From IMG/VR virus record IMGVR_UViG_3300028027_000001: a DNA stretch of 64,000 nucleotides; one strand, given 5' to 3'. A program made the translations under genes and the position numbers. The notes below the pieces were generated by a model. The model made no database searches, was not told the DNA's origin, and saw only the letters and a list, made by a program, of their open reading frames with translations. Below, one piece after another: positions 1,920-62,556 of this stretch. Position 1 is the first letter of the stretch. Every line of letters begins with the position of its first letter. This DNA is from a virus.

Positions 1920-2453
1920 TTATCTTTCAATTCCTAATTCTTCTAATGTTACTGGAGTGTAGTCTACATGCTCACAAGATACGCAGTGGTACCTATCGTC
2001 AGGCACTTCAGTATAAGACATTCCCGTCATCCATTCATCAACCCACTGAGTTTTCATTATCCGTTCTTCATGTATATGTCCGTGTATATTTCTAGGTACT
2101 CTAAATTCAAGTTCACGCTCATGTACAGGACAATGTGTTAACCATAACCCTTTATATCGAATCATCCCCGATACACTATGAACATATTTTAATAGTTCGG
2201 GTATGTCTTTAGCCATATCGTGGTTACCTAATACAACGCGTTTAAGTCCGTTCATTCTGTTTAGTAATGGGTATGGTTTACTGGATTCCATAGTTACATC
2301 ACCTAAGATATAAACTGTGTCACGTTTGGATACTTTCTTATTCCATTGTGAAATAATATGTTCGTCGTGTTCTTCGGCTGTAGAGAAACCACGTTTTTTA
2401 GCCATGTTTAAGTGGCCTAGATGTAGGTCTGCTATCATAAAAACTTTACTCAT
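1920..2453 (-). CDS. Calcineurin-like metallophosphoesterase
   Basis: DLHLGH, LGD, GNHD, TH and HGHIH motifs. Confidence 0.9.
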   Translation of the reverse strand: MSKVFMIADLHLGHLNMAKKRGFSTAEEHDEHIISQWNKKVSKRDTVYILGDVTMESSKPYPLLNRMNGLKRVVLGNHDMAKDIPELLKYVHSVSGMIRYKGLWLTHCPVHERELEFRVPRNIHGHIHEERIMKTQWVDEWMTGMSYTEVPDDRYHCVSCEHVDYTPVTLEELGIER

Positions 2454-3202: not shown

Positions 3203-3715
3203 TTAATTTATTTTAGGATTACTAATTAAATTAGATTCTTCACCCCAAGAAGTTACCATTAAAAAACCTCCTTTAACTTTGCAAAAGACTATAGGATCAG
3301 GATCAAATTCAGCCGCGGCTCCAAACATAGTATGTGGAGCTAAAATATGGAAATGTGCTATTATTGAAGAACCATCAGATAACCACTCTCCTTCTGTTAA
3401 GTATTTTTTATCAATTTTAAAATTAAGAATGTCTTGTATATTTTTATATGGTATTGAATAAATATAATTATTAGATGTTCTAAATCTTAAATTTTGGTTT
3501 TCTACTAAAATTTCATTTATATTTTCTTCAGTTACAAATGGATTTTGAGGGAATAATAATTCATATACTCTAATTAAATCTTTAAACTCTTCTCGAATTA
3601 AAAAATCATCAACTGTGGTTGTTTTATTAAACCCTAAATCAATAAGTTTTTTACAATCATCAATTGTTAACTCATTGGATTGTTTAATTTTTTCTAAAAC
3701 TAATTCTTTTAACAT
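3203..3715 (-). CDS. Hypothetical protein
   Basis: ORF with AAAGGTTATG start; C-terminal DPIVF...SWG motif. Confidence 0.7.
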   Translation of the reverse strand: MLKELVLEKIKQSNELTIDDCKKLIDLGFNKTTTVDDFLIREEFKDLIRVYELLFPQNPFVTEENINEILVENQNLRFRTSNNYIYSIPYKNIQDILNFKIDKKYLTEGEWLSDGSSIIAHFHILAPHTMFGAAAEFDPDPIVFCKVKGGFLMVTSWGEESNLISNPKIN

Positions 3716-4022: not shown

Positions 4023-4292
4023 TCATTTATTTTTATATTCGTCAATATAATAAGCACAACCAAAAATTAACCCTACTAATAGTAAAATTCTATCAACCCA
4101 AGTTGCACCTACGAAAGGTAGTGGAAAGTGTGTGGGTAATTTCCCCGTTACAAAACTACCAATGATTAATAAACTATACATCAAACCATAGAATGCATAG
4201 AATGGTGCTAGAACCATATGAAATACATTTATGTATTTAAATAATGTTTTAAAGAACATTACAATACCTAGTGAATTAAATAAATCTTTCAT
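4023..4292 (-). CDS. Membrane protein (start revised to 4292)
   Basis: Hydrophobic segments; AAAGTTATG start and promoter at ~4313. Confidence 0.65.
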   Translation of the reverse strand: MKDLFNSLGIVMFFKTLFKYINVFHMVLAPFYAFYGLMYSLLIIGSFVTGKLPTHFPLPFVGATWVDRILLLVGLIFGCAYYIDEYKNK

Positions 4293-6948: not shown

Positions 6949-6973
6949 GAAGGCGACAATTTCTTGCCGCCTT
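6949..6973 (-). terminator. Hairpin (AAGGCG...CGCCTT) closing the ncRNA locus
   Basis: Inverted repeat aaggcgacaa/ttgccgcctt with an A-rich flank on the + strand. Confidence 0.5.
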
Positions 6974-7099
6974 ACTTACTAGGTCACCGATGCCTCCTAG
7001 CGTGATGGGTTATTTAATGTCATTTTGTCTAATTTCACTTTACGTGACATAGTCGCAGGGTCCCATTTAACTGACAAAACCCGATTCGGTATTAAGGTG

Positions 7100-7207
7100 T
7101 AGTTAGGACAGGATTCGAACCTGTGCAGGGTGTCATCCCCCGGAGCATCTAAAGTTTTGACGTACTTATTATTGAGCTCCTGCATTACCACTTTCTGCCA
7201 TCTAACT
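7100..7207 (-). ncRNA. tRNA-like RNA A (29-nt expanded anticodon loop, long variable arm)
   Basis: AGTTAGA/CCTAACT-A acceptor, D-loop with GG, GGAGC/GCTCC stem, T arm ACAGG-TTCGAAT-CCTGT. Confidence 0.7.
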
Positions 7208-7351
7208 ATTCCATAAATTGGTTCCGTAAGCATTTTTTGATATTGAAATTCTTATTACTACAAAAGGCAGTTGAATAACAATTTGCCCATCATAACAAAT
7301 ACCTAAAGTTATTTGCCATTTTCTATAAATGCTTAATCTATATTCTCCCAT
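7202..7351 (-). CDS. Small ORF (49 aa) inside the ncRNA locus
   Basis: MGEYRLSIYRKWQITLGICYDGQIVIQLPFVVIRISISKNAYGTNLWNS; A-rich leader; stop codon falls in the acceptor stem of RNA A. Confidence 0.45.
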   Translation of the reverse strand: MGEYRLSIYRKWQITLGICYDGQIVIQLPFVVIRISISKNAYGTNLWNS

Positions 7352-7372
7352 TATATTTATTTTAATTTTTAG

Positions 7373-7438
7373 TAGTTAGGATAGGAATTGAACCTACTGC
7401 CGATTTTTCACGAGGGCCACCATTGCCACTACCTAACT
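7373..7438 (-). ncRNA. tRNA-like RNA B (66 nt, no proper anticodon arm)
   Basis: Perfect AGTTAGG/CCTAACT-A acceptor; T arm GTAGG-TTCAATT-CCTAT. Confidence 0.65.
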
Positions 7439-7557
7439 TTAAACCAAATGCTTTAGTCGCCCGGAATCCATCTGGGGCTTATTACTAGATAACTTGTAGC
7501 TTACTTACCATGGTTCATACCGTTGCTACTAGGAAACCCAACATTGCATTTTATTAG

Positions 7558-7668
7558 TGGTGAGAACAGGACTCGAACCTATATGATAGCTGCAAGCAGT
7601 CTCCACGCTGGATACATTTTAGTGCACCATAACTATCTTTTCGCGTCTACCAATTCCGCCATCTCACC
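7558..7668 (-). ncRNA. tRNA-like RNA C (Leu-type D arm, large structured insert in place of the anticodon arm)
   Basis: GGTGAGA/TCTCACC-A acceptor; GCG-GAATTGGTAGA-CGC D arm; GATAGTT/AGCTATC stem; T arm ATAGG-TTCGAGT-CCTGT. Confidence 0.7.
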
Positions 7669-7836
7669 TTAATTACAGTAGGTTGTAAGGTACTTGTTAG
7701 TTAGACTTTCTCTTACCCCTTTATTAACCTGTATCAAAAATTTTTATTTTGGACCTAACTGGTGGAAACTTGAAAAAACCACCTCACGTATAGTACACTC
7801 ACCTAAGAACTACCAAAGACTTATGCCTAACTGTCG

Positions 7837-7915
7837 TAGTCAGATTAGGACTCGAACCTAAATTAAGATGCCTATTGGACTCATACTTCTCCTATTCCAA
7901 TTAGAGGATCTGACT
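7837..7915 (-). ncRNA. tRNA-like RNA D (aberrant anticodon arm with 11-nt loop)
   Basis: AGTCAGA/TCTGACT-A acceptor; T arm TTAGG-TTCGAGT-CCTAA. Confidence 0.65.
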
Positions 7916-8080
7916 ATAAAAAACAGGAAGCACCTGTTCAGATCTTGGACACTAGTATACTTATCCTCCTGTTTCGCCACCCATGCCTTTGGGTCAATCT
8001 GTTTTGTAGTTTTATGTTTTCACATCTACATGACTTTAACTACAAAAGTACGCGTAGTAATTTAATTCCCCACGCGGAAT

Positions 8081-8158
8081 GAGGTTGAGAGCCTCTGTGT
8101 TGTAATATATCAATTTAACATTCTTAATATTTATTCACTTCTCACATGAACAACACAT
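8081..8158 (-). ncRNA. Repeated structured motif, copy 1 (putative kissing-loop RNA)
   Basis: TGTGTTGT/ACAACACA stem; TGAGA loop complementary to the loop of GAGG-CTCTCAA-CCTC. Confidence 0.55.
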
Positions 8159-8244
8159 ATAACCAGTCGCTCGCTTTAGAGTCAGCCACCCACTAATGGA
8201 TCGCACAGGAATCTAATTTCTCACACCTGTACTGATTATTATTT

Positions 8245-8339
8245 GAGGTTGAGAACCACTGTGTTGTGAGTAAGATTCTTACTTTTCAGTATGTTTCTCT
8301 CCTTTACCTTCTTACGCCTTTCTCAAGGGAACAACACAT
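8245..8339 (-). ncRNA. Repeated structured motif, copy 2 (putative kissing-loop RNA)
   Basis: Same frame as copy 1 with an unrelated interior; TTGAGAA/TTCTCAA complementarity; starts just after the promoter at ~8352. Confidence 0.55.
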
Positions 8340-8365
8340 TTCTTTTTATACCTAAATATACGAAT

Positions 8366-8910: not shown

Positions 8911-9957
8911 CTAGTCTTTGATAATCATCTTTTTAGAGTCGATTACTTTATTGTCAACTATTAATCGGTAATAGTAGATTCCTGCAGGTAAATGTTCTTT
9001 TTCAATTTCAATTTTGTTTTTTTCAGGGTCTAATTCATATTTTAAATTAAAATTAGCATAAGTAGAATACTTAATGTCAATGTATGATTTTGAATGTTTA
9101 GGGACAATATATTCAATTACTGTTGAGTATTTGAATGGGTTTGGGTAATTTTGACCTAGTTTAGGTACAACTGTATCCTGTTTGTCTAGTATGGATTGGT
9201 TAGGTTTTAAATAATCAACTAAAATGGATTTTGATTGAACACACCCATTTTTATCTGTTACATTTACCAAATAAGTTCCCGCTTTTATTGTTTTTAGGTT
9301 TTGTGTTTTAGCACCATTACTCCAAGAATATGAGTATGGTGGTGTACCATAATTAACACTTATTGATATTGAACCATTACTAGCTGTTTTAGTGTTCGGT
9401 TTAATAACAGTTTCATCAATTGTCATTGGTGTTAAAGTATCTATAACATAATGAAAACCAACAGTTTCCATAGTACATCCCTTAGAATCAACTACTCTAA
9501 CCCTATATGCACCCGCTCCCACATTTCCAGTATTTGAAATGAATGGTTTATTGTTCCTATCAAAATAATAGAATGTATATGGAAACAACCCACCACTAAC
9601 AAAATTTTCCATATGAGATAAACCACCAGGACAAACTATTGGGGTAAATGTTGTTGTTAATCTAAGCTTAAGTGGTTGTGGAATTGAGTCAGAAACTGTT
9701 TTAACACATCCCTTGGTGTCTGTTACCTTAACCGTATATTTACCCGCCTTAGATTGCAGATTCTGCGCATTATACCCGTTAGACCACTCATATTTGTATG
9801 GGCCTGTTCCACCATCTACTTTAGTTAGTAATATTTTCCCATCTCCACCAAAACAATTTGCTGATACTGGTTTGGCTGTTACAATCATTTTTGAACAATC
9901 TTGAGTATAGGAAATGAAGGGGGTTAGAAAAATAGCAATTAAAGTAGATAGTTTCAT
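8911..9957 (-). CDS. Secreted SprB-repeat protein with type IX secretion (T9SS) C-terminal sorting domain
   Basis: Signal peptide; three repeats of C.G...G.I....GGT.PY.Y.WSNG...NL.AG.Y.V.VTD..GC; C-terminal LGQNYPNPF...LPAGIYYYRL......KKMII. Confidence 0.85.
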   Translation of the reverse strand: MKLSTLIAIFLTPFISYTQDCSKMIVTAKPVSANCFGGDGKILLTKVDGGTGPYKYEWSNGYNAQNLQSKAGKYTVKVTDTKGCVKTVSDSIPQPLKLRLTTTFTPIVCPGGLSHMENFVSGGLFPYTFYYFDRNNKPFISNTGNVGAGAYRVRVVDSKGCTMETVGFHYVIDTLTPMTIDETVIKPNTKTASNGSISISVNYGTPPYSYSWSNGAKTQNLKTIKAGTYLVNVTDKNGCVQSKSILVDYLKPNQSILDKQDTVVPKLGQNYPNPFKYSTVIEYIVPKHSKSYIDIKYSTYANFNLKYELDPEKNKIEIEKEHLPAGIYYYRLIVDNKVIDSKKMIIKD

Positions 9958-11583: not shown

Positions 11584-12630
11584 TCAATTTGATAATGGAA
11601 TTTTAATGGTTGGGTGTGATTGATAATTTTCTAAAGTAAAATCACTAATAGAATATGTCGGTAAACAATCACCCACAGCCCATTTAACAATTTCACTTTC
11701 AATTTTTAAAGTTGGTAGTGGGTATGGTTCTCTATTTAATTGTTCTTTAATTGGTTCAATTTGATTTGAATAGATATGACAATCCCCCATATTAGCAATT
11801 AGTTCATCCGGAATCATATTCACTTCTTTAGCGATTATTTCTAATAATAAGCCATAAGATGCTAGGTTGAATGGGGTGCCTAATGGAACATCTTGGCTTC
11901 GAGCATTATACATTAATGAGATTGCTCTTTTAGGAACAGTATCTCCATATATTTTAGGTTCACCTCTGTATAGGTATTTATTTGCCTCGTGTTTTGGGTC
12001 TTCAGCATTTCTAACCCAGTCTACGTTATCAATAACCCATTTCTGTCTTTCATCATCACTCAACTCTTTGGTGTAAAATTGAAAGCTATAGTGACATGGT
12101 CGTAAAATCATATTATCTAATTCACCAACATTCCAAGCTGAAACGATGATACCTCTATCGTCTGGGTTTGTTTTGAGTAGGTGGATTGCATTTGCTATTT
12201 GGTCTATTATTTTTCCATTATATTGAATTGATCTCCAGCCGGCACCATAGATGGGACCTAGATTAAACATTGAATCATGGAAGGAATGACCCCCAGTTTT
12301 TACCTTTTGTTTAATTTCTTCAAGTGTGTATGGGGAGGAACATGAGTTTTTATATTTTTTAAACCAATCCCCGTCCCAAATAGAAATGTTATCTTTCCAT
12401 AAATGTCTAATATCTGTTGAACCATTAAGAAACCATAAAAGTTCACCAACAATACTTTTCCAGTGAAGTTTTTTCGTAGTCAATAATGGAAACCCGTCTG
12501 ACATTTTATGTCTAATTTGTCTACCAAACACAGAAATTGTTCCAACTCCAGTCCTGTCTTGTTTTTTTACTCCATTATCTAAAATATCTTGAAGCAATGC
12601 TTGGTATTGTTTATCTAAATTGTTTGCCAT
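11584..12630 (-). CDS. thyA: Thymidylate synthase
   Basis: DRTG.GT, FPLLTTKK, ELLWFL, LGPIYG, PCH, RS.D..LG.PFN, GDCHIY. Confidence 0.95.
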   Translation of the reverse strand: MANNLDKQYQALLQDILDNGVKKQDRTGVGTISVFGRQIRHKMSDGFPLLTTKKLHWKSIVGELLWFLNGSTDIRHLWKDNISIWDGDWFKKYKNSCSSPYTLEEIKQKVKTGGHSFHDSMFNLGPIYGAGWRSIQYNGKIIDQIANAIHLLKTNPDDRGIIVSAWNVGELDNMILRPCHYSFQFYTKELSDDERQKWVIDNVDWVRNAEDPKHEANKYLYRGEPKIYGDTVPKRAISLMYNARSQDVPLGTPFNLASYGLLLEIIAKEVNMIPDELIANMGDCHIYSNQIEPIKEQLNREPYPLPTLKIESEIVKWAVGDCLPTYSISDFTLENYQSHPTIKIPLSN

Positions 12631-13250: not shown

Positions 13251-13575
13251 CTATTTTGGTTAATGTGTAATTACTGTTTTTTGTTTTAAATACTACTTTA
13301 TCAGGAGTAAATGAAATTAATTCGGTAATAGGTGTTGTTTGCCAAACATAATACTGGTTAAATGGGGACATAATCAATGATCTACCCACTGAGGGTTCTT
13401 TGTGTCTTGATTTAAATGTTGAATCATCATTCCACTCAATCCACGTAATATCAACGGATTTAACGATCATATTATCGTGTTCTCTAACAAGACACCACTT
13501 TGGGTGATCCACCGTTATTCCAATCATACTAGCAAAGGTATCTAAGTCAAAGGATGTGTTTTCTATTTTACTCAT
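13234..13575 (-). CDS. Hypothetical phage protein
   Basis: WQTTPITE...FKTKNSNYTL. Confidence 0.7.
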   Translation of the reverse strand: MSKIENTSFDLDTFASMIGITVDHPKWCLVREHDNMIVKSVDITWIEWNDDSTFKSRHKEPSVGRSLIMSPFNQYYVWQTTPITELISFTPDKVVFKTKNSNYTLTKIDETTV

Positions 13576-13876
13576 TTCTTATATTGTTTAATATATTCGT
13601 GTAATGATTTTAAATCAGTGCAAATTGGTAAACCGTTATCATCTGCTGTCAATCCCCATTTCCATAATTATTTTCATAGATGAACCAATTAATCCAATCA
13701 ATTCCTTCTACACTATAGTGACTTTTAAATGTTAATTGTAAAAGTTTATCTAAACCTTGCCATACCGGAAATTTTTCATTCTCTAAAAAGTCAAATCCCA
13801 AATTATACAACTCTTGGAATTGTTTAGTTGTTTGTTTATACTCTTTAATGATTTTTTTAAATTCTTTAAACTTCAT
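13572..13876 (-). pseudogene. Hypothetical protein with an apparent 1-nt frameshift near 13655
   Basis: The ORF stops at 13649, but another frame continues GLTADDNGLPICTDLKSLHEYIKQYKK to 13572 and abuts the next gene. Confidence 0.55.
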
Positions 13877-14040
13877 AACTTTATATTTAATTTTTCTTCT
13901 GTTAGATCATCTAATAGTTCGTGGCAATTAAGGCATTTTGGGTCACAATTCATATCTAATACTTCTTTAATATCAAATTGATGCTGACACACGTGTTCTA
14001 CTTTAAAATACTTTTTTACTCTCTTAATTACTCTTTTCAT
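13873..14040 (-). CDS. Small putative Zn-binding protein (not in ORF track)
   Basis: MKRVIKRV...CQHQF...CLNC; promoter at ~14060. Confidence 0.55.
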   Translation of the reverse strand: MKRVIKRVKKYFKVEHVCQHQFDIKEVLDMNCDPKCLNCHELLDDLTEEKLNIKL

Positions 14041-30126: not shown

Positions 30127-30852
30127 TTATATGGTTTCTAAAATTTTAGCGATTGCAGCAAAGAAACATATTTCTTTATCTATCACGCTCGCACTCTGGA
30201 ACATATGATCATTTATTGTGATAATCACGAGTCCTTCATTTCCAGATGCATATTTTTCTACATCTGTGTATAGTTTTTTATATAGACTATCAAAATCACT
30301 CACATCACTATCCGCTATTAATTTACGGATTTCAGTAAATGTTTTTGAGTGTTTTTTAGATAGTAATTGAATTAAATTATTTTCAGTGTCTGCATCGTTG
30401 GTTAACGTTTGAGACAGCACAAGTTTATCGTCTATAATGTGTTTTTGCACATTGTTGATAATACGACGCAAATCAGGATAGTACGCGTTTATAATCGCCG
30501 CTACGTCGCTGATTTCGTACTGTATATTTTCAGTGTCGAGTATGTTTACTACGTGTTTGGCTACGTGTTTTTTGCTTGGTGGTTTCAAATTGTAGTCCTC
30601 CAAACGCGAACGCAACGGTTCAATTAAGCGTTCTGGGTAATTACCGGTTAATATGAATCGTGTATTTAAACTGTATGTTTCGATCATGTTTAGGAGCAAT
30701 ACTTGCCCTGCTTGCAGGATATGGGTGCAATTATGGGTTAATACGTCATTATTCTCACCTATAAAAAAATTATGATTTTTACTAACAGTTAAATCATACA
30801 CCTTTTTTTTTCCTTCAAGTTTTTTTACATTAACTATATTTAATTTTTTCAT
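30127..30852 (-). CDS. Split intein C-fragment fused to the C-terminal part of the clamp loader ATPase (gp44/RFC-like)
   Basis: VYDLTV..NHNFF...LTHN|C, then ...RFILTGNYPERLIEPLRSR...YPDLRRIIN. Confidence 0.92.
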   Translation of the reverse strand: MKKLNIVNVKKLEGKKKVYDLTVSKNHNFFIGENNDVLTHNCTHILQAGQVLLLNMIETYSLNTRFILTGNYPERLIEPLRSRLEDYNLKPPSKKHVAKHVVNILDTENIQYEISDVAAIINAYYPDLRRIINNVQKHIIDDKLVLSQTLTNDADTENNLIQLLSKKHSKTFTEIRKLIADSDVSDFDSLYKKLYTDVEKYASGNEGLVIITINDHMFQSASVIDKEICFFAAIAKILETI

Positions 30853-31973
30853 AACTTTAAACCTTTAATCATTTTATTATAATATACTAAAAAATTATCA
30901 CTCATACACACTTCTGGGTTTATGAAGTTGATTAAATTGGATTCGTTCACCCATATAAATTTATAATCATTTTCTAAACACCATTTTATAGCTCCATCCA
31001 TTTTATCAATTTGAGCAATATATTGACGTTTAGGCTTGAGTTCATATAATATTTTATTTTCCAAATCTATGAAATCAGGAATATATATTTTCCTCTCATT
31101 TTCTGTAACATATTGAATTCTTATAGACTCATATTCAAGTTTAGGATTTGAAATAAAAAAACACACCTCCCAACTACTTCTAAAGTAATAGGTTTTATTA
31201 TTGAATGGTATATCAATTCTTCTTTTAGTTCTATAATTATTTTGGGGAGAGAAGGTTCCATCCAATATGTTTTTTTTCTGAGAATCGGATGATTTTTTTC
31301 TTCTTATATTTTTTTCTTCTTCTGATATATTAAATAACCATGGGTGATCAATATTTTGGTGGGTTAATTTCATGTTTTCTCTCCAAATAGTATTCCTTGA
31401 GGGGTCATCTTTCATTTCATTCCATTTTTCCATTCTTTTCTCCACCACATCTGGGGATGTTAGTATTTGGGAATGGATTAAATTGTGGTCATTGATACTA
31501 AGGGATGAAATATATTTATTAAATAATGGGTTACACGGATGAGCAGTTTTAGCATTTTTGGATATTCTAAAATCATTAATGGTCAATGCCTGATTGGAAA
31601 ATATACAGGATGGAATTAAAGATGATTTTTTAAATAATTCATATACTATAATACGTCTATCATTCTCATTAAAAAAACACGCTAAATGATTAAATATTCT
31701 AGTATAACCATACCACTTGTTATCTACAGGAGATTTAATATGATTGTTTATGGGGTTTACATCCATCCTATCTAATATATCATTTAATTGATAGTTGGTG
31801 ATATAAACATACTTACTATCATATACATATTTGTATTCACTTGGGGTGAGGTATTTTTTTAGATCTGTCAAAAGAAGATTTCTCGATTCAAACTTATTAC
31901 CCGTTATAACATTTACCCACGGATAATGATATGTAATAAAGTTATTTTTTATTTCATCTAGATGTTTCATCAT
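30849..31973 (-). CDS. Free-standing putative endonuclease (TnsA-like PD-(D/E)XK C-terminal domain)
   Basis: YFRSSWE...EYE...I.Y...YIPDF...YELKP; lies between the split intein halves. Confidence 0.75.
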   Translation of the reverse strand: MMKHLDEIKNNFITYHYPWVNVITGNKFESRNLLLTDLKKYLTPSEYKYVYDSKYVYITNYQLNDILDRMDVNPINNHIKSPVDNKWYGYTRIFNHLACFFNENDRRIIVYELFKKSSLIPSCIFSNQALTINDFRISKNAKTAHPCNPLFNKYISSLSINDHNLIHSQILTSPDVVEKRMEKWNEMKDDPSRNTIWRENMKLTHQNIDHPWLFNISEEEKNIRRKKSSDSQKKNILDGTFSPQNNYRTKRRIDIPFNNKTYYFRSSWEVCFFISNPKLEYESIRIQYVTENERKIYIPDFIDLENKILYELKPKRQYIAQIDKMDGAIKWCLENDYKFIWVNESNLINFINPEVCMSDNFLVYYNKMIKGLKL

Positions 31974-32036
31974 ATTAATTTTGTTATAAATATATGATAA
32001 CCTTGGAGAGAATGGGAAATGTTGGTTGATTCGATG

Positions 32037-32657
32037 TTATATTGAAAGGACATAACCACATTCTATAACTTCTTTAGTAGTAACAACTATAGGATTGGAA
32101 TTTTCATCATTAATATACCATTTATGGGATTCAGTACATACAACTTTTTCTCCATTTTCAAATTCTATTTCATAACAATCTTGTTCCCCCTTATAAAATA
32201 ATTCAAAGGGCATCCACTGTATTTGGGATGTTTCTTCGTTATATGATTTTACTAAGTCGTTTTTTTCATCAAGGAATTTTATTGGGATTTTTACAATCTC
32301 CCCTTTTCTTAAAACAGTCACCAATGTTTGTTCTTCTAAACACTCATCTAATATTACTATTTTAGGTGCCGGTTTAAAAGACATTACCGACACAAAAGGA
32401 AGTATTTCATTCCTGATATCGTCTATACCCCTCTTATCTGTAGCATTGATCATGATATAGTCACAGTCAATGTTACGAGCGATGATTTTGGCTAAGGTGG
32501 TTTTACCGGATCCGGCTTTGCCAAAGAAACCTAACATAGGTATGTTCTGTTGTTCAATCCATCCCTCTACTTTTTGTTTAAGGTAATCATCACACACATA
32601 GCCCTCAAGTGTTGATGGTCTGTGTTTTTCGTTTAAAACATAATGTCTATCTTGCAT
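32037..32657 (-). CDS. Clamp loader ATPase N-terminal part fused to split intein N-fragment
   Basis: EKHRP, GKAGSGKTT, INATD, VILDE|CLEEQTLV...VCTESHKWY. Confidence 0.92.
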   Translation of the reverse strand: MQDRHYVLNEKHRPSTLEGYVCDDYLKQKVEGWIEQQNIPMLGFFGKAGSGKTTLAKIIARNIDCDYIMINATDKRGIDDIRNEILPFVSVMSFKPAPKIVILDECLEEQTLVTVLRKGEIVKIPIKFLDEKNDLVKSYNEETSQIQWMPFELFYKGEQDCYEIEFENGEKVVCTESHKWYINDENSNPIVVTTKEVIECGYVLSI

Positions 32658-37663: not shown

Positions 37664-38566
37664 CTAGTCAAAGCTGAAGAAATCATCGATAAATGCATTC
37701 AATTTGAGGTCCCAACCAATATCTGAGTATAAGGTTTGGAGTTTGTTTCGCATAATTGAATCAAATAGGCCCTCACGGTCAATATATTTGTTTATGATTT
37801 CAATAATTTCTGGGGGATCGTTATAGCCATTAAATCCAATTACATCTATTTTATACGGGTTTGGTTTAAGCTGTGCATAATACATTTTATCACCCAAGGA
37901 AAACTCAGGGTATTTTGCTGATTGTTTCTTAAATCGGATAAAGTCGTTATATAATGATGCTGCTCTTGTATTAACGGGGCATTTTTTCTTGAGGGTGGAA
38001 AATAATTCACCAGGCATTGGTGGGCGCTCAATATACTCCCCTAGTTTTTTAAGTCCGGTTGGTTTGAGTAGATGCTTCCAATCTATGGTGTTTAACGACG
38101 CTTTGAATTCGAGTACATCTTTGTCTATATCTTCTTTCGATTTACCAAACAATATATCCTTGATTACCTTCTCTCCAAAGTTACGGAATATAGGGGGAAA
38201 GTTTGATTTTATCAAATCTAACCCTTTAGTATCTAATTCTTCAACTTTTACACCTTCTTTATCTATAATGTACTGGGCGTATCTTCGTTTACCTGACCAG
38301 TATACTCTTTTTATTATGTATTCAGGTTTAAGGTCTAGGTAATGTTCCTTTGAGTTAAAGCATCTAGATGCTATGTTGTTTTGGAAATCATTTAATTTAT
38401 CACCTATTGATAGTTGGAGTTTCTTTACCTCTTCAATAATGATTTCATCTGGGGTATTATCATAGTCGGGAAGTCTGTGTCTCAGTATTGATTCTAATCC
38501 AATAATAAGGGAATCGGTGTCACTACCTCTAACATGGGTATTAATTTCTTCTACATTAAACTGCAT
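37664..38566 (-). CDS. Family B DNA polymerase, C-terminal part (palm motif C and thumb)
   Basis: GSDTDS, KRRYA, KGLD..KS. Confidence 0.9.
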   Translation of the reverse strand: MQFNVEEINTHVRGSDTDSLIIGLESILRHRLPDYDNTPDEIIIEEVKKLQLSIGDKLNDFQNNIASRCFNSKEHYLDLKPEYIIKRVYWSGKRRYAQYIIDKEGVKVEELDTKGLDLIKSNFPPIFRNFGEKVIKDILFGKSKEDIDKDVLEFKASLNTIDWKHLLKPTGLKKLGEYIERPPMPGELFSTLKKKCPVNTRAASLYNDFIRFKKQSAKYPEFSLGDKMYYAQLKPNPYKIDVIGFNGYNDPPEIIEIINKYIDREGLFDSIMRNKLQTLYSDIGWDLKLNAFIDDFFSFD

Positions 38567-39477
38567 GGGATTATTTTTTCTAGTATATAATTTATATCAT
38601 TAAATTGCATATATGATATTCTAATCAAATTTATTTTATTTAACTCACAATATTTATTCTTAACTTGATCTAAATATTTTGCTTTTTCAAATGACTTTTT
38701 CCCTCCAAAAAATTTAACAGGTTTATAATGCAATTCCCCATCAAATTCTATACATAAGTTCAAATGAGGGATATAAAAATCAAATCTCAAAACTGCATTA
38801 GTTTCAGGATTTCTACAATCATCAAATGTCTTTTGGGCAATATACGAAATATTTTTTGTTTTTAAAAATAATTCTATAGATTCCTCTCCTTTACTCCAAC
38901 TACACCTAGGACATCGTTGCCCTTGTAGGTGGTTTGAAAGTTGTTGATTAAACCATCCGTGTTGGGGGCATTTTATTTTAAATTTATTATCAAAATACCC
39001 AACATAAGAATCCCAATCGTATTCATATCCTAAATTTAAATCGTTAACTCTTGATTTTAAATCATCTAAAGGTATTGGTTTTCTATGGTTTTTACATTTA
39101 GGGCATCTCTGTTTCCCATGAACGTGATTTGTCCACAACATTTCAAACAGTCCATGTTCCTTGCATATTATAGAAACCTTATCCATTGTCTGAAAATCTG
39201 ATGTTATTAAAGAATAATCATACAGCCCATCATGGATGTGATTGGCTGTTCTAATTTTATCTTCATATGTGTGGTTTTTTCCAACACATTTTGGGCATTT
39301 AGATTTTTTTGCAATATGGTTGTCTAAAGATACTTCCCACACCCCGTGGATTGAGCATATTATTGGGTATTTTTCCATAACCCCCCTATATTCTTTTATT
39401 AGGGAATAATCATATTTATCCCCATGCACATTTTTTGATTTTTGAATAGCTTCTTCTAATGTTAATCGTTTTCCCAT
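38551..39477 (-). CDS. Putative homing endonuclease (repeated Zn modules plus Vsr-like domain) splitting polB
   Basis: Three I.C..HG.....NH.....CPKC repeats; SKGE...LRFDFY...IEFDGELHY...D..KN.YC...LIRI. Confidence 0.85.
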   Translation of the reverse strand: MGKRLTLEEAIQKSKNVHGDKYDYSLIKEYRGVMEKYPIICSIHGVWEVSLDNHIAKKSKCPKCVGKNHTYEDKIRTANHIHDGLYDYSLITSDFQTMDKVSIICKEHGLFEMLWTNHVHGKQRCPKCKNHRKPIPLDDLKSRVNDLNLGYEYDWDSYVGYFDNKFKIKCPQHGWFNQQLSNHLQGQRCPRCSWSKGEESIELFLKTKNISYIAQKTFDDCRNPETNAVLRFDFYIPHLNLCIEFDGELHYKPVKFFGGKKSFEKAKYLDQVKNKYCELNKINLIRISYMQFNDINYILEKIIPCSLM

Positions 39478-39518
39478 GTGTGGCGTTTTAATGTCTTGTA
39501 CGGTTATACATATTAACA

Positions 39519-41366
39519 TTATTTGTTAAGATATTCACTTTCAATTAATTTATTAGCATAACGAATAGTTTCTTGTATACTTCTTTGTCCGAATGTGGTA
39601 ATAGCGGATGAACACATTTTGTATCCGTCTGTGTATCGCCATGAATTAATTGCGAAACAACCATAAACACTGTTCAATAGGATTTTTATGGAATGTTGTT
39701 TTTGATTATATAATTTCCCTTTATCTACATCCCCCGAGTTATATGCATCTTTCATTATTTTTTTATATTCTTGTCTAAGCCTAAACCAATCGGATAATAA
39801 TTCAGAGACAATACTGGTTTTACTAGTATCAAACATAACACCATTAGCTGAAATTGTCCAGTTATTTTTTTCAATCAGTGCTAACAGGTCTTTTACTGTT
39901 ATTTTACCTTGCTTTAACTTATATGACCTTCTATCTAATTTTTCTACTGTTAATATTTTGTCTGGGTCTTCTTCTTTAAGTTCTTCAAAACTGCACCAAC
40001 AATTATAATTAGGGTTTGGTACTACGATTCTTCCCTTCATGGTTTCAACACCTAAATTTAATGATCTAATAATAGATGGGTATAGGGAAGCATAGTCGGC
40101 ATTAATTAACCAACTGTGAAGCCCAACCATTGGGGGGAGTAAATAACCACCAGCATATCCGTCTTTTCTTTTAACAGTTCGAAGATTTCTTTGTATAAAA
40201 GAACCTGATATTGTTTTAACTATAATATTGTTTCCTTCAATACTATGGATATGACCTTCGATTGTTGGAGTACCACGTTGATGAACTACCAAATCACCTA
40301 CTTCTATCTCACGTATGCTGGGATTAGTGGTGGTTGGTTTATTTGGGGAGATTATACCCTTTCTCTTTAAGTAAGTCAAAATGGCTCCTTCATTTAAAAT
40401 TGTATTATAATATATAGATTCATAAGGCGTATGACATAAATGTGAAATCAATATGGTTAACTCGATAAATTTCAGTTTATCCTCTAACGCTTCCAATATT
40501 TCAACATCTCGAATGTTGTAATCTATATATTTGTTTGGATCTTCTCTGAACAATGTGTCAAGATTACCATCATATTCAATTTTACCTAGTTTGGCATATT
40601 TGATGCCAATATCCCCCAGTTTATACGACGGTTCTTCCTTCATGATGTACTTCTTAAGCAACAACATAAAGTCCAAACAGTTAACTAAACCAATACGAAT
40701 TGGGGAATTGGGGTTATTTATGTTTTCATCGATTTTACCAATTGGAGATAAACGATATACTTCATCACCTAAACGTTTTTTAATACGATAATACAAATAG
40801 GGCATATCGAAGAAATCACTGTTGAAACCAACACAAATAGTCGGATCCATCTGTTCCCACTTGCTTAAGAATTTACGTAACAACGTGTTTTCATCTACAC
40901 ATGGGAGTATTGATTTACCGTCTGCTGATATTTCTTCAATTTGATTTTGTTTATCTAAAATGAAACATATCTTTTCCTTAGTAGTAGCATCAATTAAAGC
41001 AATAGCGGTTACTTCAGCATTTGCTTCCCTAATAGTGGTTGGATTTAGTGGCCCAATAATTTCAATCTCAATATCCAGGTATACTAGGTTGTGATATGAG
41101 GGCATGTCATCTGTTTCGTAGTATAAATCACGTAACAAAACCAGTTCCTTATCTATATCGCGCTCCAATATTTTAGGGTCTTTCCAATCATACTTTCCGT
41201 ATACTGGGGAGCACTTGTCACCAAATAAAGTGGTGTGTTCTCCATATTCATCTAGTCTATAGACTGTTGGTCTGTATTGGAATTTGGAAATGCCAGATTT
41301 GTCGTCACGTAAGAAATAATGATACGCGTCTTCTCCGTTACGTGAATAGTATACACTTTGAAACAT
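39519..41366 (-). CDS. Family B DNA polymerase, N-terminal part (exonuclease, motifs A and B)
   Basis: LDIE, GFNSDFFD, YNIRD, YAGGY, DYASLYPSII, KILLNSVYG, ITTFGQ. Confidence 0.93.
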   Translation of the reverse strand: MFQSVYYSRNGEDAYHYFLRDDKSGISKFQYRPTVYRLDEYGEHTTLFGDKCSPVYGKYDWKDPKILERDIDKELVLLRDLYYETDDMPSYHNLVYLDIEIEIIGPLNPTTIREANAEVTAIALIDATTKEKICFILDKQNQIEEISADGKSILPCVDENTLLRKFLSKWEQMDPTICVGFNSDFFDMPYLYYRIKKRLGDEVYRLSPIGKIDENINNPNSPIRIGLVNCLDFMLLLKKYIMKEEPSYKLGDIGIKYAKLGKIEYDGNLDTLFREDPNKYIDYNIRDVEILEALEDKLKFIELTILISHLCHTPYESIYYNTILNEGAILTYLKRKGIISPNKPTTTNPSIREIEVGDLVVHQRGTPTIEGHIHSIEGNNIIVKTISGSFIQRNLRTVKRKDGYAGGYLLPPMVGLHSWLINADYASLYPSIIRSLNLGVETMKGRIVVPNPNYNCWCSFEELKEEDPDKILTVEKLDRRSYKLKQGKITVKDLLALIEKNNWTISANGVMFDTSKTSIVSELLSDWFRLRQEYKKIMKDAYNSGDVDKGKLYNQKQHSIKILLNSVYGCFAINSWRYTDGYKMCSSAITTFGQRSIQETIRYANKLIESEYLNK

Positions 41367-42626: not shown

Positions 42627-43337
42627 TTATTTAAATTTGATCATTTCAATTACTTCTTGTTTTGCTGTTTTTTCATGATTAGCAAACACCCCAGATACTT
42701 CAGATGTAACCATAGATGCACCTTGATGTTTCACCCCTCTACAACTTACACAAGAGTGAGCAGAATCAATCATTACCATCACACCAATATTACCTACACA
42801 AATTTTAGAGATGGCATTATGTATAGCTACAGTTAATTGTTCTTGGATGGCTCCACGACGGCCAAAATGTTCTACAATGCGATTAAGTTTAGACAAACCT
42901 ACAACGTGTCCGTCTTTCCCAGGAATATATGCTATATGTACGTTTCCTCGAATGGTTTGGTGGTGGTGGGAACACTGGCTGGTTAAGGGGATGTTTTTTT
43001 CTAATACGATTCCATTATATCCGTCGGATGGGAACGAAGTAACGTCTGACATTAATTCGTATCGGCCTTTCCATAAGTCATTTACATAAGCTTTAGCTAC
43101 ACGACGTGGGGTATTGTCTGAATTTGGGTCGTCTTGCCACTTACACCCAAGGGCTGTTAAAAACTCCCCATATTTTAATGCCGCGGCATCAATAATTTGG
43201 GATTTTTCTTCATCATTTAATGAACGGTGTTCACCTTTAGCGATTAATTCAGCTAAATAAGTGGAAATACCATTAGCATGTCCTGCTGTTGCAATTTCGA
43301 GTTCCTCTACTTTTACTTTCTTTTCGTTTCTACTCAT
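42627..43337 (-). CDS. folE: GTP cyclohydrolase I
   Basis: TPRRVAK, SQCSHH, GLSKLNRIV, IQEQLT, HSCVSCRGV. Confidence 0.97.
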   Translation of the reverse strand: MSRNEKKVKVEELEIATAGHANGISTYLAELIAKGEHRSLNDEEKSQIIDAAALKYGEFLTALGCKWQDDPNSDNTPRRVAKAYVNDLWKGRYELMSDVTSFPSDGYNGIVLEKNIPLTSQCSHHHQTIRGNVHIAYIPGKDGHVVGLSKLNRIVEHFGRRGAIQEQLTVAIHNAISKICVGNIGVMVMIDSAHSCVSCRGVKHQGASMVTSEVSGVFANHEKTAKQEVIEMIKFK

Positions 43338-43914: not shown

Positions 43915-44751
43915 TCAAACATAGCGGTTTTTCCCAAACATGAGGATGTGCAAACGAGGACAAAATCTCCACCCACGCTTAAGTGCTTGTTCAGCTACCC
44001 ACCCTGTTCTTGAGTTTAATGTATTTACATCTACTCCCTCTGGCATTAAGCATATGTCTGATGGTTGGAAGTGTCTAAGTTGAGATAATATACTTTCAAT
44101 CTCCTCAATATCTTGCTCAGTAGCAACAACAAATTTCAATTGGAAGTCGCATTCTCTAAATCTTCGATCATTTATGTATCGTTGTATTACTGTAATATCA
44201 ATACGATCGCGCTCATGACGTTCAGCCCACTTTTGTTTATATTCAACACCGGAATTTTTCAAATTAGCTACCCATGGGGTTGATGATGCTAATTTAGGTG
44301 ACATAGACATTAAATCTGAATATCTTGAAATACGATCATCGTATATGGTGGCATTGGTTTCAATGGTAATATGGTAATGTAATTCATGTAATTGTTTACA
44401 TAACTCAGCTAATGCGTCTGTTTGCATAGTAGGTTCACCACCCGAAATAACAACATGGTTAATGTTTTGATCATCTGTATTTTCTAATACGATTTTAACG
44501 ATATCCTCAATTTCCATTTGGTTTTTTTCCGGGTTGTGGCTGGAATATGGGGTGTCGCATAGTGAGCCGTTTCCGTCTAGTCCAACCCATGCACATCTCA
44601 AATTACAAGCAGATGTACGAATGAACAGACATGCGGTTCCTGTTAACTTTCCTTCTCCTTGAAATGTGCCACTATATTGGAATCCAGTGGAGTCCTCATT
44701 TAGTTTGCCTTTGATTGGGAATATACCCCCATGTACTAAATTTAATTTCAT
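43915..44751 (-). CDS. queE: 7-carboxy-7-deazaguanine synthase (radical SAM)
   Basis: TFQGEG, FIRTSACNLRC...CDTPYS, ISGGEP, IETNA, SPKL, LKFVV, RLH. Confidence 0.93.
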   Translation of the reverse strand: MKLNLVHGGIFPIKGKLNEDSTGFQYSGTFQGEGKLTGTACLFIRTSACNLRCAWVGLDGNGSLCDTPYSSHNPEKNQMEIEDIVKIVLENTDDQNINHVVISGGEPTMQTDALAELCKQLHELHYHITIETNATIYDDRISRYSDLMSMSPKLASSTPWVANLKNSGVEYKQKWAERHERDRIDITVIQRYINDRRFRECDFQLKFVVATEQDIEEIESILSQLRHFQPSDICLMPEGVDVNTLNSRTGWVAEQALKRGWRFCPRLHILMFGKNRYV

Positions 44752-47052: not shown

Positions 47053-47967
47053 TTATGCATTATGAGTGGATAAAATATGTTCAGCGTGTGCTCGAGCTAC
47101 TTCCCAACTTACTTCACCAGTTTCGTCTTCATATTGTACTGGGTCTGGTTTGCCTAATTTGATGAATGCCTCAATGCGTTCAACTGAGGATGCTGATTTA
47201 TAGTCTGAATTACCTGATGGGTATGGTTTGTATGATGTGTTTGTGCGTTTGTACACCTCATTAAATTCCAGTCCTAATTCACGGCATAATATTTCCCCAT
47301 CTTGTAAAATAGTAAATTTATCTCCATGTAAGTATGGTGTAAAATATCCTACTTTTTCTGCACCCCAGTTTCCTAAACGAAACGCATGGTCGTCAGCATC
47401 ACGAAATTCTTGTCTGCAGTCAGGATAAACTCCAAAATCACCCGCGTGGATTCCTAGAGCAATATCACATGGTTCATCAGTTTTACCAGATATAGATAAT
47501 GCAATCGCTTGTACAATGGATGCAAACATCTTGTTACGGTTTGGAACTACGGTTTGCCTTTGATTTTCCTCAGCGTAGTGGCCTTCAGGTACGTCTTCCC
47601 CACCTTCTACTAATGTGGAATTAAGTAAATCAACTAAACCGTCTAGTTTAATTACACGGTAGTTAATTAGAGATTTATTTGATGCTGATTCTTTCCATTC
47701 CTTCTGCATTTTATCCAAGTCTAACCCTTCTTGTTTGTCTCCAGGGATGCCGTCTTTTACAGAAATATTATTAATTTTTTGGGATATGTAACCATTAATA
47801 TAATCAACTAATGATTGAGCGCGCTCCAATTCTACTCTATGTTTTTGACCATAGTCAAATGAAATAGCTGTTACAGTATCGAATTCTTTTAAGCAACGAA
47901 GTAACAATGTACTCGAGTCCATCCCACCACTCAGTGAAACTACGGCGTGTTTTCTTGTGTTTTTCAT
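47053..47967 (-). CDS. queC: 7-cyano-7-deazaguanine synthase
   Basis: SLSGGMDS, FDYGQKH..E, VVPNRN, GIHAGD..YPDCR.EF. Confidence 0.95.
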   Translation of the reverse strand: MKNTRKHAVVSLSGGMDSSTLLLRCLKEFDTVTAISFDYGQKHRVELERAQSLVDYINGYISQKINNISVKDGIPGDKQEGLDLDKMQKEWKESASNKSLINYRVIKLDGLVDLLNSTLVEGGEDVPEGHYAEENQRQTVVPNRNKMFASIVQAIALSISGKTDEPCDIALGIHAGDFGVYPDCRQEFRDADDHAFRLGNWGAEKVGYFTPYLHGDKFTILQDGEILCRELGLEFNEVYKRTNTSYKPYPSGNSDYKSASSVERIEAFIKLGKPDPVQYEDETGEVSWEVARAHAEHILSTHNA

Positions 47968-52460: not shown

Positions 52461-52476
52461 ATCAACGAACTATTCG

Positions 52477-62553: not shown

Positions 62554-62556
62554 AAT

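Follow-up and report, generated by a model that had tools for sequence, protein, structure and literature searches.

Two stable RNAs of phage T5, RNA1 and RNA2, carry the misc_RNA annotation "tRNA-like stable RNA with unknown functions" (GenBank AY543070) and lie in a phage tRNA and non-coding RNA region where they are interspersed with other stable RNAs and micro-ORFs. In RNA1, the acceptor stem spans 6-7 bp and is accompanied by a Leu-type D arm (CCGGAATTGGTAGACGG), about 80 nt of middle sequence and a T arm with the pairing GAAGG/CCTTC. RNA2 combines an acceptor stem with a GG-bearing D-like arm, about 60 nt of middle sequence and the T arm GCAGGTTCGAATCCTGT. Another stable small RNA, T4 rnaC (species 1 RNA), is likewise a neighbor of phage tRNAs, beside rnaD in the T4 tRNA cluster, and its 3' 92 nt combine a canonical T arm and an acceptor-like helix with a middle that is not tRNA-like. 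The tmRNA also joins an acceptor stem and T arm to a long non-tRNA domain in place of the anticodon arm, and it is processed by RNase P and aminoacylated. In the engineered tRNA scaffold of Ponchon and Dardel, dating from 2007, an RNA of interest reportedly replaces the anticodon arm and is then processed and stabilized by the cell. In the tRNA punctuation of mitochondrial transcripts and of MALAT1-mascRNA, an embedded tRNA or tRNA-like fold guides RNase P and RNase Z to free its neighbors, and the phage regulatory RNAs C4 (of P1/P7) and M3 are matured by RNase P (PMC11143913). The tRNA-Leu of E. coli is still charged without its anticodon and variable arms, and the requirements of LeuRS are A73, A15-U48, G18G19, A20a and the D/T loop contacts (PMC9976931); as that paper relates them, the minimalist tRNA-Leu substrates of Larkin et al. 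(2002) possess neither an anticodon nor a variable arm, retain the acceptor stem, A73 and the D and T arms with their tertiary contacts, and are still leucylated by E. coli LeuRS.

The locus described here lies in the window, that is, the whole 64-kb stretch of DNA analyzed, whose source is a large freshwater phage and whose host probably belongs to the Bacteroidota. Its four tRNA-like elements share their architecture with T5 RNA1 and RNA2 and with the 3' part of T4 rnaC, and the term "undescribed system" used in the preliminary description is therefore too strong. However, the T5 RNAs form a separate sequence family, reaching only 22.7-23.7 bits under the models of the family to which the elements belong (the Leu-type chassis family), below the T5 tRNAs, and a large family with exchangeable inserts is established for the chassis only; T4 rnaC differs in its 46-nt 5' extension, in having no Leu-type D arm and in its score of 23 bits, below that of T4 tRNA-Leu. 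The G3-U70 alanine identity, reduced D loop, pseudoknots, tag frame and SmpB of tmRNA have no equivalent in the elements, all four of which have T-A at acceptor position 3-70. The minimalist tRNA-Leu substrates, as related, are laboratory constructs, whereas charging of the phage RNAs by a Bacteroidota LeuRS is a candidate activity, and the engineered scaffold is a man-made tool of which the phage family is a putative natural counterpart. The principle proposed here is that of tRNA punctuation and of C4 and M3 maturation; unlike in tRNA punctuation, the chassis unit itself bears the variable domain, and cleavage at the locus is putative.

Organization of the operon and its tRNA-like elements

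The elements belong to a non-coding operon of about 1.4 kb on the minus strand (Table 1), bracketed by the phage promoter motif at 8364-8355 and the terminator at 6973-6950, which agrees with the earlier claims of an own promoter and of a closing hairpin near 6960. The motif TTCGTATATT occurs in 17 copies in the window, on the minus strand every time, against an expected 0.47; the copy following that of the operon is at 6927-6918, and the motif is phage-specific and is also found upstream of genes in the relative L003. The hairpin placed earlier at about 7920-7975 is present, its position being 7939-7921, where it forms a second terminator-like site that is kept in the relatives L139 and L141. 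Because this internal terminator separates the promoter from the four elements, their transcription requires read-through or an undetected start site. The description of the locus as nearly free of open reading frames has to be qualified by the 49-aa frame between elements 2 and 1.

Table 1. Features of the non-coding operon, with positions in the window.
Feature	Position	Strand	Evidence
Promoter motif TTCGTATATT heading the operon	8355-8364	-	motif count
Kissing-loop leader motif, copy 1 (LM1)	8244-8338	-	model R2, 71 bits
Module closed by a hairpin between LM1 and LM2, ends AATAATCAGT...ACTGGTTAT	8162-8241	-	read from sequence
Kissing-loop leader motif, copy 2 (LM2)	8080-8157	-	model R2, 77.7 bits; alignment A2
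Conserved RNA module 3, contains ...ACAGATTGACCCAAAGGCATGGGTGG	7977-8079	-	RNA-library contigs, homologous stretches
Internal terminator-like hairpin GAACAGGTGCTTCCTGTTT and T run, immediately 5' of element 4	7921-7939	-	
tRNA-like element 4, 79 nt	7837-7915	-	R3 43.9 bits
Spacer module between elements 4 and 3	7669-7836	-	no ATG-started frame on the minus strand
tRNA-like element 3, 111 nt	7558-7668	-	Rfam tRNA 36.2 bits, R3 53.2 bits
Conserved RNA module sp32, final base abutting +1 of element 2	7439-7557	-	95-98% identity in relatives
tRNA-like element 2, 66 nt, minimal form	7373-7438	-	Rfam tRNA 26.3 bits, R3 30.0 bits
Micro-ORF, 49 aa, predicted, within the spacer between elements 2 and 1	7202-7351	-	
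tRNA-like element 1, 108 nt	7100-7207	-	Rfam tRNA 33.8 bits, R3 46.2 bits
Conserved tail RNA module 3' of the last element	6974-7099	-	77-91% identity in relatives
Intrinsic terminator, operon end	6950-6973	-	

Each of the four elements contains a 7-bp acceptor stem, a T arm and A73, the discriminator A being found throughout as reported earlier (4/4), and none (0/4) contains a usable anticodon loop. Alignments to RF00005 and to the covariance model R3 display the canonical upper half of a tRNA (7-bp acceptor, GGTTCRANTCC-type T loop and GG D loop), in keeping with the GG-containing D loops and canonical T arms of the preliminary description except for element 2, whose D arm is degenerate; the 5-bp anticodon stem with a 7-nt loop, U33 and a readable anticodon is absent from the elements. 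Element 1 has the acceptor AGTTAGA/CCTAACT with a single A-C mismatch, a T arm identical to the family consensus, a long variable arm and a 5-bp stem (GGAGC/GCTCC) around a 29-nt loop, while in element 2 (AGTTAGG/CCTAACT) about 17 nt in total replace the anticodon and variable arms. Element 3 (GGTGAGA/TCTCACC) carries the D arm GGCGGAATTGGTAGACGC, which is of the canonical tRNA-Leu type, and a 7-bp helix (GATAGTT/AGCTATC) that closes a 53-nt middle; element 4 (AGTCAGA/TCTGACT), with a GG-containing D-like arm and the T arm TTAGG/CCTAA, has no anticodon arm beyond a weak 3-bp stem that closes an 11-nt loop. The anticodon domains thus differ in each element, as had been noted, and the middles are unrelated to one another and to the 98 family inserts. 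The covariation claimed for the acceptors was also observed, with pairs 1-72, 4-69 and 7-66 varying together among the four elements. The bases 3' of A73 are CAC, CTA, CTA and CGA, and base -1 is T for elements 4 and 1 and A for elements 3 and 2. Single-sequence folding of the elements gave z values of -0.2 to -1.1, which are uninformative taken alone. The four elements descend from a leucine tRNA that has lost its decoding arm, and the parts retained, namely the acceptor stem, T arm, D/T elbow and A73, are exactly those read by tRNA end-processing enzymes.

The model R3, built solely from IMG/VR members with the window rows excluded, recovered all four elements, on the minus strand, at the positions given in the preliminary description (30.0-53.2 bits, E 4e-11 to 4e-5), whereas the true tRNAs of the window scored at most 25.5 bits under this model, below all four. 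The pseudo or absent tRNA calls that had been predicted were obtained with ARAGORN with introns off, which called 0 of 4 elements, and in part with RF00005, which matched elements 1, 2 and 3, two of them above the gathering score of 29, and missed element 4. Once introns were allowed, ARAGORN assigned element 1 to tRNA-Leu(tag), placing an insert of 22 nt at position 32/33. An Rfam scan of the locus and 19 array loci, covering ribozymes, riboswitches and tRNA mimics such as skipping-rope and YrlA, found the locus empty of these and detected no intron family; the sole window match of the Rfam tmRNA models, at 52287-52462, lies outside the locus.

The leucine-type chassis family and its exchange in relatives

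The 25-nt 3' frame of the chassis was detected in at least 120 IMG/VR contigs, with 145 copies of which 138 are distinct; nearly all members begin with AGTCAGGTGGCGGAATTGGTAGACGC, and their total length ranges from 54 to 211 nt. The frame occurs in almost no cellular genome and is phage-restricted, with arrays of up to five or more elements in one contig. Clustering of the 98 distinct inserts gives 85 groups, 76 of which have a single member, and in the smallest members a hairpin with a 4-nt loop stands where the anticodon arm belongs. Across 60 distinct members the stems are paired in 98% of cells, against 32-42% with the partners slid, and double changes were observed in 13 of the 15 stem pairs, amounting to 66 cells versus 10.6 in shuffles, a level reached by none of 500 shuffles. 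Covariation also extends into the inserts of small families, for example L017 and L044 (GTTGAA/TTCAAC versus GAGCAA/TTGCTC, with the loop retained). The inserts fold only modestly more stably than shuffled sequence does (mean z -0.9). The flanks follow the rules obeyed by the four true tRNAs of the window, position -1 being U in 100 of 113 members and the discriminator being followed by C in 110; CCA is encoded in only 3 of 113, and U48 is present in 101 of 113. Together with the swaps in relatives, the number of contigs, the unrelated middles and the stem covariation bear out the earlier suggestion of a tRNA scaffold carrying variable cargo.

Exchange and loss of whole units were observed in the relatives. 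Element 2 is identical at 65 of 66 nt in L156, where the sole change converts a T-stem G-U into G-C, and the element at this position is 130 nt long in L157 and L159 and 147 nt long in L158. The counterpart of element 3 in L158 keeps an identical acceptor on a different body of 159 nt. The spacer between elements 2 and 1, together with the 5' part of element 1, gives way to a 123-nt spacer in L157 and L159 and is missing from L156, where the T arm of element 2 leads into the tail. In L001 the entire promoter-to-terminator unit is missing, and the same terminator stands directly 3' of the upstream protein gene. The commonest frame is near-invariant, stems included, across phages whose proteins share only about 50% identity, which suggests an extra constraint, such as a sequence-specific partner or recombination.

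A DNA search with the whole locus gave no match in 50,697 cultured phage records, and searches with two natural chassis elements returned tRNA-Leu D arms or lone T arms and no record with both halves. IMG/VR contained no exact copy of the 26-nt 5' half of element 3 or of element 1, and no related locus was recovered with the downstream 94-aa protein as query. Among 40 window proteins scanned with Pfam, there was no RNA ligase, nuclease, CCA-adding enzyme or synthetase attributable to the locus. The complementarity of inserts to other RNAs that had been proposed was not borne out in the window, where all 13 pieces into which the locus was divided gave only chance-level antisense matches to the remainder of the 64 kb (all E at least 0.1). 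Full-text literature searches, whose coverage leaves most subscription journals outside, gave no description of the family, and we could not find an account of its size, its near-constant Leu-type frame or its insert swapping.

Modules between the elements and RNA-library contigs

The stretches between the elements are conserved folded modules. In LM1 a closing helix (GTGTTGT/ACAACAC) surrounds a hairpin with the loop TTGAGAA, a variable middle and a 3' hairpin with the complementary loop TTCTCAA; in alignment A2 of the leader motif 96% of cells are paired, and in 15 of the 36 contexts the motif stops 0-6 nt upstream of a chassis element or tRNA. The frame of the module at 8162-8241 recurs in L135 around another center, also flanked by two copies of the leader motif, and counterparts of module 3 are present in L139, L141 and L153. 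The spacer at 7669-7836 shares 81% identity over 170 nt with the sequence 3' of a chassis element in L010. The ends of sp32 pair as AAATGC/GCATTT, and the module retains its 95-98% identity in L156-L159 despite differing neighbors; it is conserved in five contexts, two of them immediately 3' of a protein gene. The tail module, found in L156, L157, L158 and L048, displays compensatory long-range pairs and a variable center.

Assembled RNA-library contigs from four studies contain modules of the locus, although such contigs cannot reveal cleavage sites and DNA carry-over is possible; they span parts of the locus only, and the uncovered parts, among them the inserts of the four elements, are uninformative as to expression. 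The stretch 7977-8104 (module 3 and the 3' end of LM2) is present at an identity of at least 95% in contigs from four studies, which share the ends 7977/79 and 8103/04 and have dissimilar flanks. The kissing-loop motif reaches high depth in RNA-library contigs, and sp32 is found in those of three studies. An adapter-flanked contig at 7913-8001 hints at a short abundant fragment, whose RNA ends are undefinable from the contig.

Possible roles of the tRNA-like elements

There is, in our judgment, an even chance that the elements are tRNA mimics through which RNase P, RNase Z and the CCA-adding enzyme, and perhaps LeuRS, are brought in to excise and stabilize small RNAs. Host RNase P would cleave the 5' end of every element, RNase Z would cleave 3' of A73, and the CCA-adding enzyme would act on the freshly made 3' end, so that a long transcript would yield discrete, probably stable small RNAs, namely the elements with their different folded inserts and the conserved modules between them; the excised modules would be the kissing-loop motif, sp32 and the tail. 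The role as processing signals considered in the preliminary description is consistent with the flanks, which obey the rules of true tRNAs, and with modules that end exactly at +1 of an element. The elements may be leucylated too, which is possible because bacterial LeuRS is independent of the anticodon and of the variable arm, and the chassis frame retains every LeuRS requirement listed in PMC9976931. The near-constant ends may double as recombination joints, through which units would be gained, lost and traded between phages. Since an acceptor/T minihelix alone suffices for RNase P, RNase Z and the CCA-adding enzyme, processing by itself does not explain why the Leu-type D arm is so strictly conserved.

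The retention of the full L-shape, with its D/T elbow and LeuRS identity set, beyond the needs of end processing would fit decoys or sponges, in which anticodon-less bodies titrate host factors that attack or bind the tRNA body or 3' end, protecting phage translation, and in which the middle matters less than the body; candidate targets are acceptor-end toxins of defence systems, tRNA-modifying enzymes, LeuRS and EF-Tu. The nearly invariant frame sequence and the phage-restricted arrays of up to five or more elements per contig point in the same direction. However, 85 different middles would be superfluous for a pure decoy, the compensatory changes and conserved loops within insert families mean that the inserts themselves are under selection, and no tRNA-targeting defence or counter-defence gene was found near the locus in the Pfam scans of window proteins, so a decoy role is considered unlikely. 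An even less probable reading is a role at the level of DNA, in which the constant 25-nt ends are homology joints for shuffling small cassettes, likened to the promoter-stem-loop cassettes of T4-type phages, and the RNA shape is a relic of ancestral tRNA genes. The end points of the L156 deletion lie within the T arm/acceptor of two elements, L157-L159 swap units at one position, spacers are common to otherwise unlike contigs, and the entire operon is present or absent between the duplicated promoter motif and the common terminator. Nevertheless, 13 of the 15 stem pairs show compensatory double changes, which indicate selection on RNA pairing, beyond DNA identity, and the rules for U at -1 and C at 74 are the same as those of real tRNAs; this reading is also compatible with the processing explanation and does not exclude it.

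Decaying tRNA pseudogenes without function might be expected to include a copy like element 1, which resembles tRNA-Leu(UAG) with 22 bases added to the anticodon loop, or like element 2 with its degenerate D arm and only 30 bits, and ARAGORN is silent on the elements. Against such decay, which is very improbable here as the preliminary description had already argued, stand a frame that persists in more than 100 contigs around replaced middles, the covariation of the stems, the maintained flank rules and the near-identity of element 2 in L156, where the single change restores a Watson-Crick pair. True decoding tRNAs with intron inserts, or tRNAs reading unusual codons, are the explanation to which we attach hardly any probability. 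ARAGORN with introns on does fit 96 of the 138 family members, including the tRNA-Leu(tag) reading of element 1, but the isotypes and intron positions so obtained are scattered and inconsistent, the inserts are far below the size of group I or group II introns, a bulge-helix-bulge motif was not seen, and excision would leave a normal anticodon arm in element 1 only. Bulge-helix-bulge introns are not known to be spliced in bacteria. The removal of the inserts to give ordinary tRNAs, named in the preliminary description as a possible outcome, is made unlikely by this inconsistency of the anticodon and by the minimal members, in which a tetraloop hairpin takes the place of the arm.

Returning to the processing explanation, we tentatively extend it, at somewhat less than even probability, to a natural tRNA-scaffold expression system of phages from lakes and other waters, in which the near-constant Leu-tRNA chassis, pared down to what RNase P, RNase Z, the CCA-adding enzyme and LeuRS need for recognition, would have the host excise, stabilize and perhaps leucylate unrelated structured RNAs with putative functions of their own. 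The ends would allow cassette exchange, and the same punctuation would also define the ends of the kissing-loop motif, sp32 and the tail as additional cargo RNAs. Annotation is affected in that such elements are overlooked or mislabelled, either as pseudo-tRNAs or as tRNAs with introns and a random isotype. With the LeuRS identity set retained, the question arises of whether a non-decoding RNA can be charged, and to what use. If the elements are processed as proposed, phages would employ the tRNA shape as a general-purpose handle for small-RNA production, a natural version of the laboratory tRNA scaffolds, and the family would offer a function-first entry to hundreds of unannotated metagenomic phage RNAs and to the stable RNAs of T4 and T5, which have been unexplained for decades.

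Limits and contents of the non-coding operon

The 10-nt motif TTCGTATATT was observed in 17 copies in the window, compared with an expectation of 0.47, and every copy is on the minus strand. From its position before genes in both the window and its relatives, it was read as the core of the phage promoter. One copy and a terminator enclose 1.4 kb in which a long open frame is absent, so the operon that the preliminary description had placed between its own promoter and a closing hairpin is confirmed. The four tRNA-shaped elements named there are likewise real, with three matching the Rfam tRNA model (36.2, 33.8 and 26.3 bits) and all four matching R3 (53.2, 46.2, 43.9 and 30.0 bits), a covariance model of the chassis family trained on 36 IMG/VR members with the window sequences excluded, with which the authentic tRNAs of the window score at most 25.5 bits. 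Each element has A as its discriminator and a T arm of canonical form, and the acceptor covariation claimed earlier was recovered, as all four form the 7-bp stem and pairs 1-72, 4-69 and 7-66 covary; ARAGORN called none of the four, as had been anticipated. Element 1 without 22 nt of its loop would give a plausible tRNA-Leu(UAG), a partial exception to the non-decoder reading that we read as a trace of ancestry.

Features of the window and of comparison loci, with their coordinates
Feature	Coordinates	Strand	Description
Promoter motif	8364-8355	minus	opens non-coding operon
LM copy 1	8244-8338	minus	after promoter
LM copy 2	8080-8157	minus	after promoter
Adapter-flanked RNA-library contig	7913-8001		run X24
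Element 4	7915-7837	minus	decoding arm replaced by weak 3-bp stem, 11-nt loop
Element 3	7668-7558	minus	decoding arm replaced by 53-nt domain, 7-bp closing helix
sp32, spacer before element 2	7557-7439	minus	95-98% identity in five otherwise different contexts
Element 2	7438-7373	minus	decoding arm replaced by ~17 nt in total
Element 1	7207-7100	minus	decoding arm replaced by 5-bp stem, 29-nt loop
Terminator	6973-6950	minus	closes non-coding operon
SprB-repeat protein	8911-9957	minus	348 aa
Interrupted replication genes	30127-32657, 37664-41366, 61522-63417	minus
GTP cyclohydrolase I, QueE-like and QueC proteins	42627-43337, 43915-44751, 47053-47967	minus
Putative permuted tmRNA	52287-52462	minus	between tRNA-Glu and tRNA-Ser
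L134 GOLLD, tmRNA, freshwater-1 RNAs	11836-12243, 13561-13958, 3348-3409		coordinates as listed together
L156, L157 ncRNAs	1010-1400, 2030-2105		after stop codon
T5 (L177) tRNA-Met	4042-4114

The window, with a G+C of ~32% and all genes of at least 200 aa on the minus strand, encodes thymidylate synthase, a GroEL-like chaperonin, a fragmented family B DNA polymerase, an intein-bearing ribonucleotide reductase, many glycosyltransferases, and FolE, QueE-like and QueC proteins. It represents a large phage, probably of a Bacteroidota host. The SprB-repeat protein, with its type IX secretion C-terminal sorting domain, points to such a host, and the proteins resembling GTP cyclohydrolase I, a QueE-like radical-SAM enzyme and QueC suggest a 7-deazaguanine pathway, as in phages modifying their own DNA. 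Replication genes are interrupted by intein pieces and homing-endonuclease-like genes; for instance, intein halves occur in a clamp-loader-like AAA+ gene, the family B polymerase is split over two ORFs, the large subunit of the reductase carries a remnant intein, and a GIY-YIG/NUMOD gene is present. The true tRNAs (Thr, Ser, Glu and Ala) lie at 52-53 kb, where the Rfam permuted-tmRNA model RF04321 has a hit (53.5 bits, gathering score 47) and ARAGORN also reports a permuted tmRNA, with the tag GNTNHMSIAA; the phage tRNA cluster would then include a small tmRNA made of two pieces.

Spread, fold and exchange of the chassis family

IMG/VR was scanned with a 25-nt T-arm/acceptor string of element 1, degenerate at two positions, which was found in at least 120 contigs as at least 145 copies, at least 138 of them distinct. 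Among the matches listed, nearly all copies start with AGTCAGGTGGCGGAATTGGTAGACGC, which comprises an acceptor strand and then the D arm of bacterial tRNA-Leu, an arm that the 3' search pattern did not impose, total lengths range from 54 to 211 nt, and 98 cleanly delimited inserts, which replace the anticodon arm, fall into 85 unrelated clusters, including 76 singletons. Many contigs carry arrays, frequently within large tRNA clusters; that of L134, one of the fetched comparison loci (L numbers, mostly IMG/VR contigs), adjoins GOLLD (317 bits), tmRNA and freshwater-1 RNAs in one ncRNA-rich stretch. The pattern was found just 15 times in 185,579 species genomes, always in metagenome-assembled-genome contigs from scattered bins, and the frame with both halves in none of the cultured phages of the searched collection; the chassis, a near-constant Leu-type tRNA body, is a phage element and not a host tRNA.

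Across 60 distinct members whose acceptor stems vary, aligned by fitting to the model, which favours pairing, 98% of cells are paired, against 32-42% with the 3' partners slid; in 66 cells both sides had changed, against 10.6 in shuffles, none of 500 reaching 66. A genuine fold is nevertheless indicated by the slid controls and the double changes, and the covariation foreseen for the stems extends to the family, with compensatory double changes in 13 of 15 pairs. In the few insert families with at least two members, such as those of L017 and L044, stems vary on both sides and loops are kept, and the inserts are themselves under selection.

Relatives of the operon were also compared. In L001, whose upstream protein is 85% identical, the gene is followed immediately by the terminator and then by the next promoter. 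In the window, a promoter copy and the whole 1.4-kb operon are inserted ahead of the same terminator. L156 retains sp32, element 2 (65 of 66 nt identical, the sole change converting a G-U to a G-C pair) and the tail after element 1, without the micro-ORF spacer and the element 1 body, the junction lying inside the T arm/acceptor common to elements 1 and 2. The element 2 position is occupied by elements of 130 nt in L157, 113 nt in L159 and 147 nt in L158, the last with a 159-nt element bearing the element 3 acceptor further upstream. Frame and position are constant and the middle is replaced, with units gained or lost at the constant ends. In L156 and L157, sp32, a chassis element and the tail come directly after a protein gene's stop codon, without their own promoter, and would be excised from the mRNA 3' untranslated region.

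Companion modules and their occurrence in RNA libraries

LM, a kissing-loop leader motif, is closed by a helix (GTGTTGT/ACAACAC) and contains a TTGAGAA-loop hairpin, 25-100 nt of variable sequence and, on the 3' side, a second hairpin whose TTCTCAA loop is exactly complementary to the first, both loops being of 7 nt. Its covariance model, R2, detected 48 copies in the fetched loci, carried besides the window by L128-L155, L017, L022, L030, L055, L058, L071, L073 and L095; in L022 the proposed loop-loop contact is preserved by a compensatory change (TGATAA with TTATCA), and the 3' stem covaries in L095. Of 36 distinct contexts, 15 have the 3' end of LM 0-6 nt ahead of a chassis element or a tRNA; no Rfam family matched the motif, and it may be a leader, stability or antitermination element of phage tRNA/ncRNA operons. 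The ends of sp32 pair, and it halts exactly at +1 of the next element; long-range pairs of the tail covary around a variable centre, and the spacer 3' of element 4 recurs after a chassis element in L010.

The top DNA match for the locus is a subsurface metagenome, possibly the one from which it came, and freshwater runs contain parts of the locus. In Logan data, which are assembled contigs with RNA ends not visible and DNA carry-over possible, LM, module 3 (7977-8079) and sp32 are found between dissimilar flanks, with identities of at least 95%, in four metatranscriptome studies, LM reaching a summed contig depth of 300-445 in one run, which hints at transcription of these modules, as distinct from the four inserts. 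One RNA-library contig has Illumina adapter on both sides, indicating a short, abundant cDNA insert spanning the internal terminator.

Possible roles and known phage RNAs

Among 113 family members, U stands at -1 in 100, C follows A73 in 110 and CCA is encoded in just 3; the four true tRNAs of the window agree with this (T at -1, a C following the discriminator, CCA not encoded), so the elements sit in surroundings like those of real substrates for RNase P, RNase Z and the CCA-adding enzyme. What the elements keep of a tRNA is precisely what tRNA end-processing enzymes recognise, and they are directly adjoined by conserved neighbour RNAs, resembling tRNA punctuation and the maturation of phage RNAs C4 and M3 by RNase P (PMC11143913). 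On these grounds we favour, at roughly even chance, tRNA mimics through which host tRNA end-processing would be directed and small RNAs stabilised. The frame also keeps the whole requirement set of E. coli LeuRS (A73, A15-U48, G18G19, A20a and D/T loop contacts), and since this enzyme still charges tRNA-Leu stripped of its anticodon and variable arms (PMC9976931), leucylation of the elements is a concrete prediction.

Rival readings are decoys for tRNA-binding host factors, which we consider unlikely, and elements acting mainly as DNA-level recombination joints, a still less probable reading that is compatible with tRNA mimics directing processing. Pseudogenes, set beside the compensated stems, are highly improbable. 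Unusual decoding tRNAs are the least credible of all: with introns allowed, ARAGORN fits most members, but isotypes and intron positions are scattered, and the shortest members have a tetraloop hairpin in place of the anticodon arm, so the chassis RNAs were judged not to be decoders or to contain spliceable introns.

In the T5 record, RNA1 and RNA2 carry the label 'tRNA-like stable RNA with unknown functions'; their neighbours are tRNAs, micro-ORFs and further stable RNAs. Read from its sequence, RNA1 combines an acceptor helix with a D arm of Leu type, a ~80-nt middle and a T arm; the layout of RNA2 is similar, T4 rnaC is comparable in its 3' part, and annotated 'tRNA-like elements' are also present in Bacillus phage 0305phi8-36. 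RNA1, RNA2 and rnaC reach just 22-24 bits with the chassis models, below the tRNAs of their own phages, and share the architecture and not the sequence family. The T5 tRNA-Met, whose acceptor (AGTTAG.../...CTAACTA) is almost identical to those of elements 1 and 2, scores 36.7 bits with the chassis model, above RNA1 or RNA2. In the literature covered, with subscription journals mostly outside the search, no description was found of this Leu-type family, of its constant frame or of insert exchange; the earlier suggestion of an undescribed system nevertheless goes too far, as phage tRNA-like stable RNAs were already known. The chassis RNAs are a real, selected and widespread phage RNA family, four divergent members of which lie within the modular non-coding operon of the window, and the family belongs with the known yet unexplained tRNA-like stable RNAs of phages.
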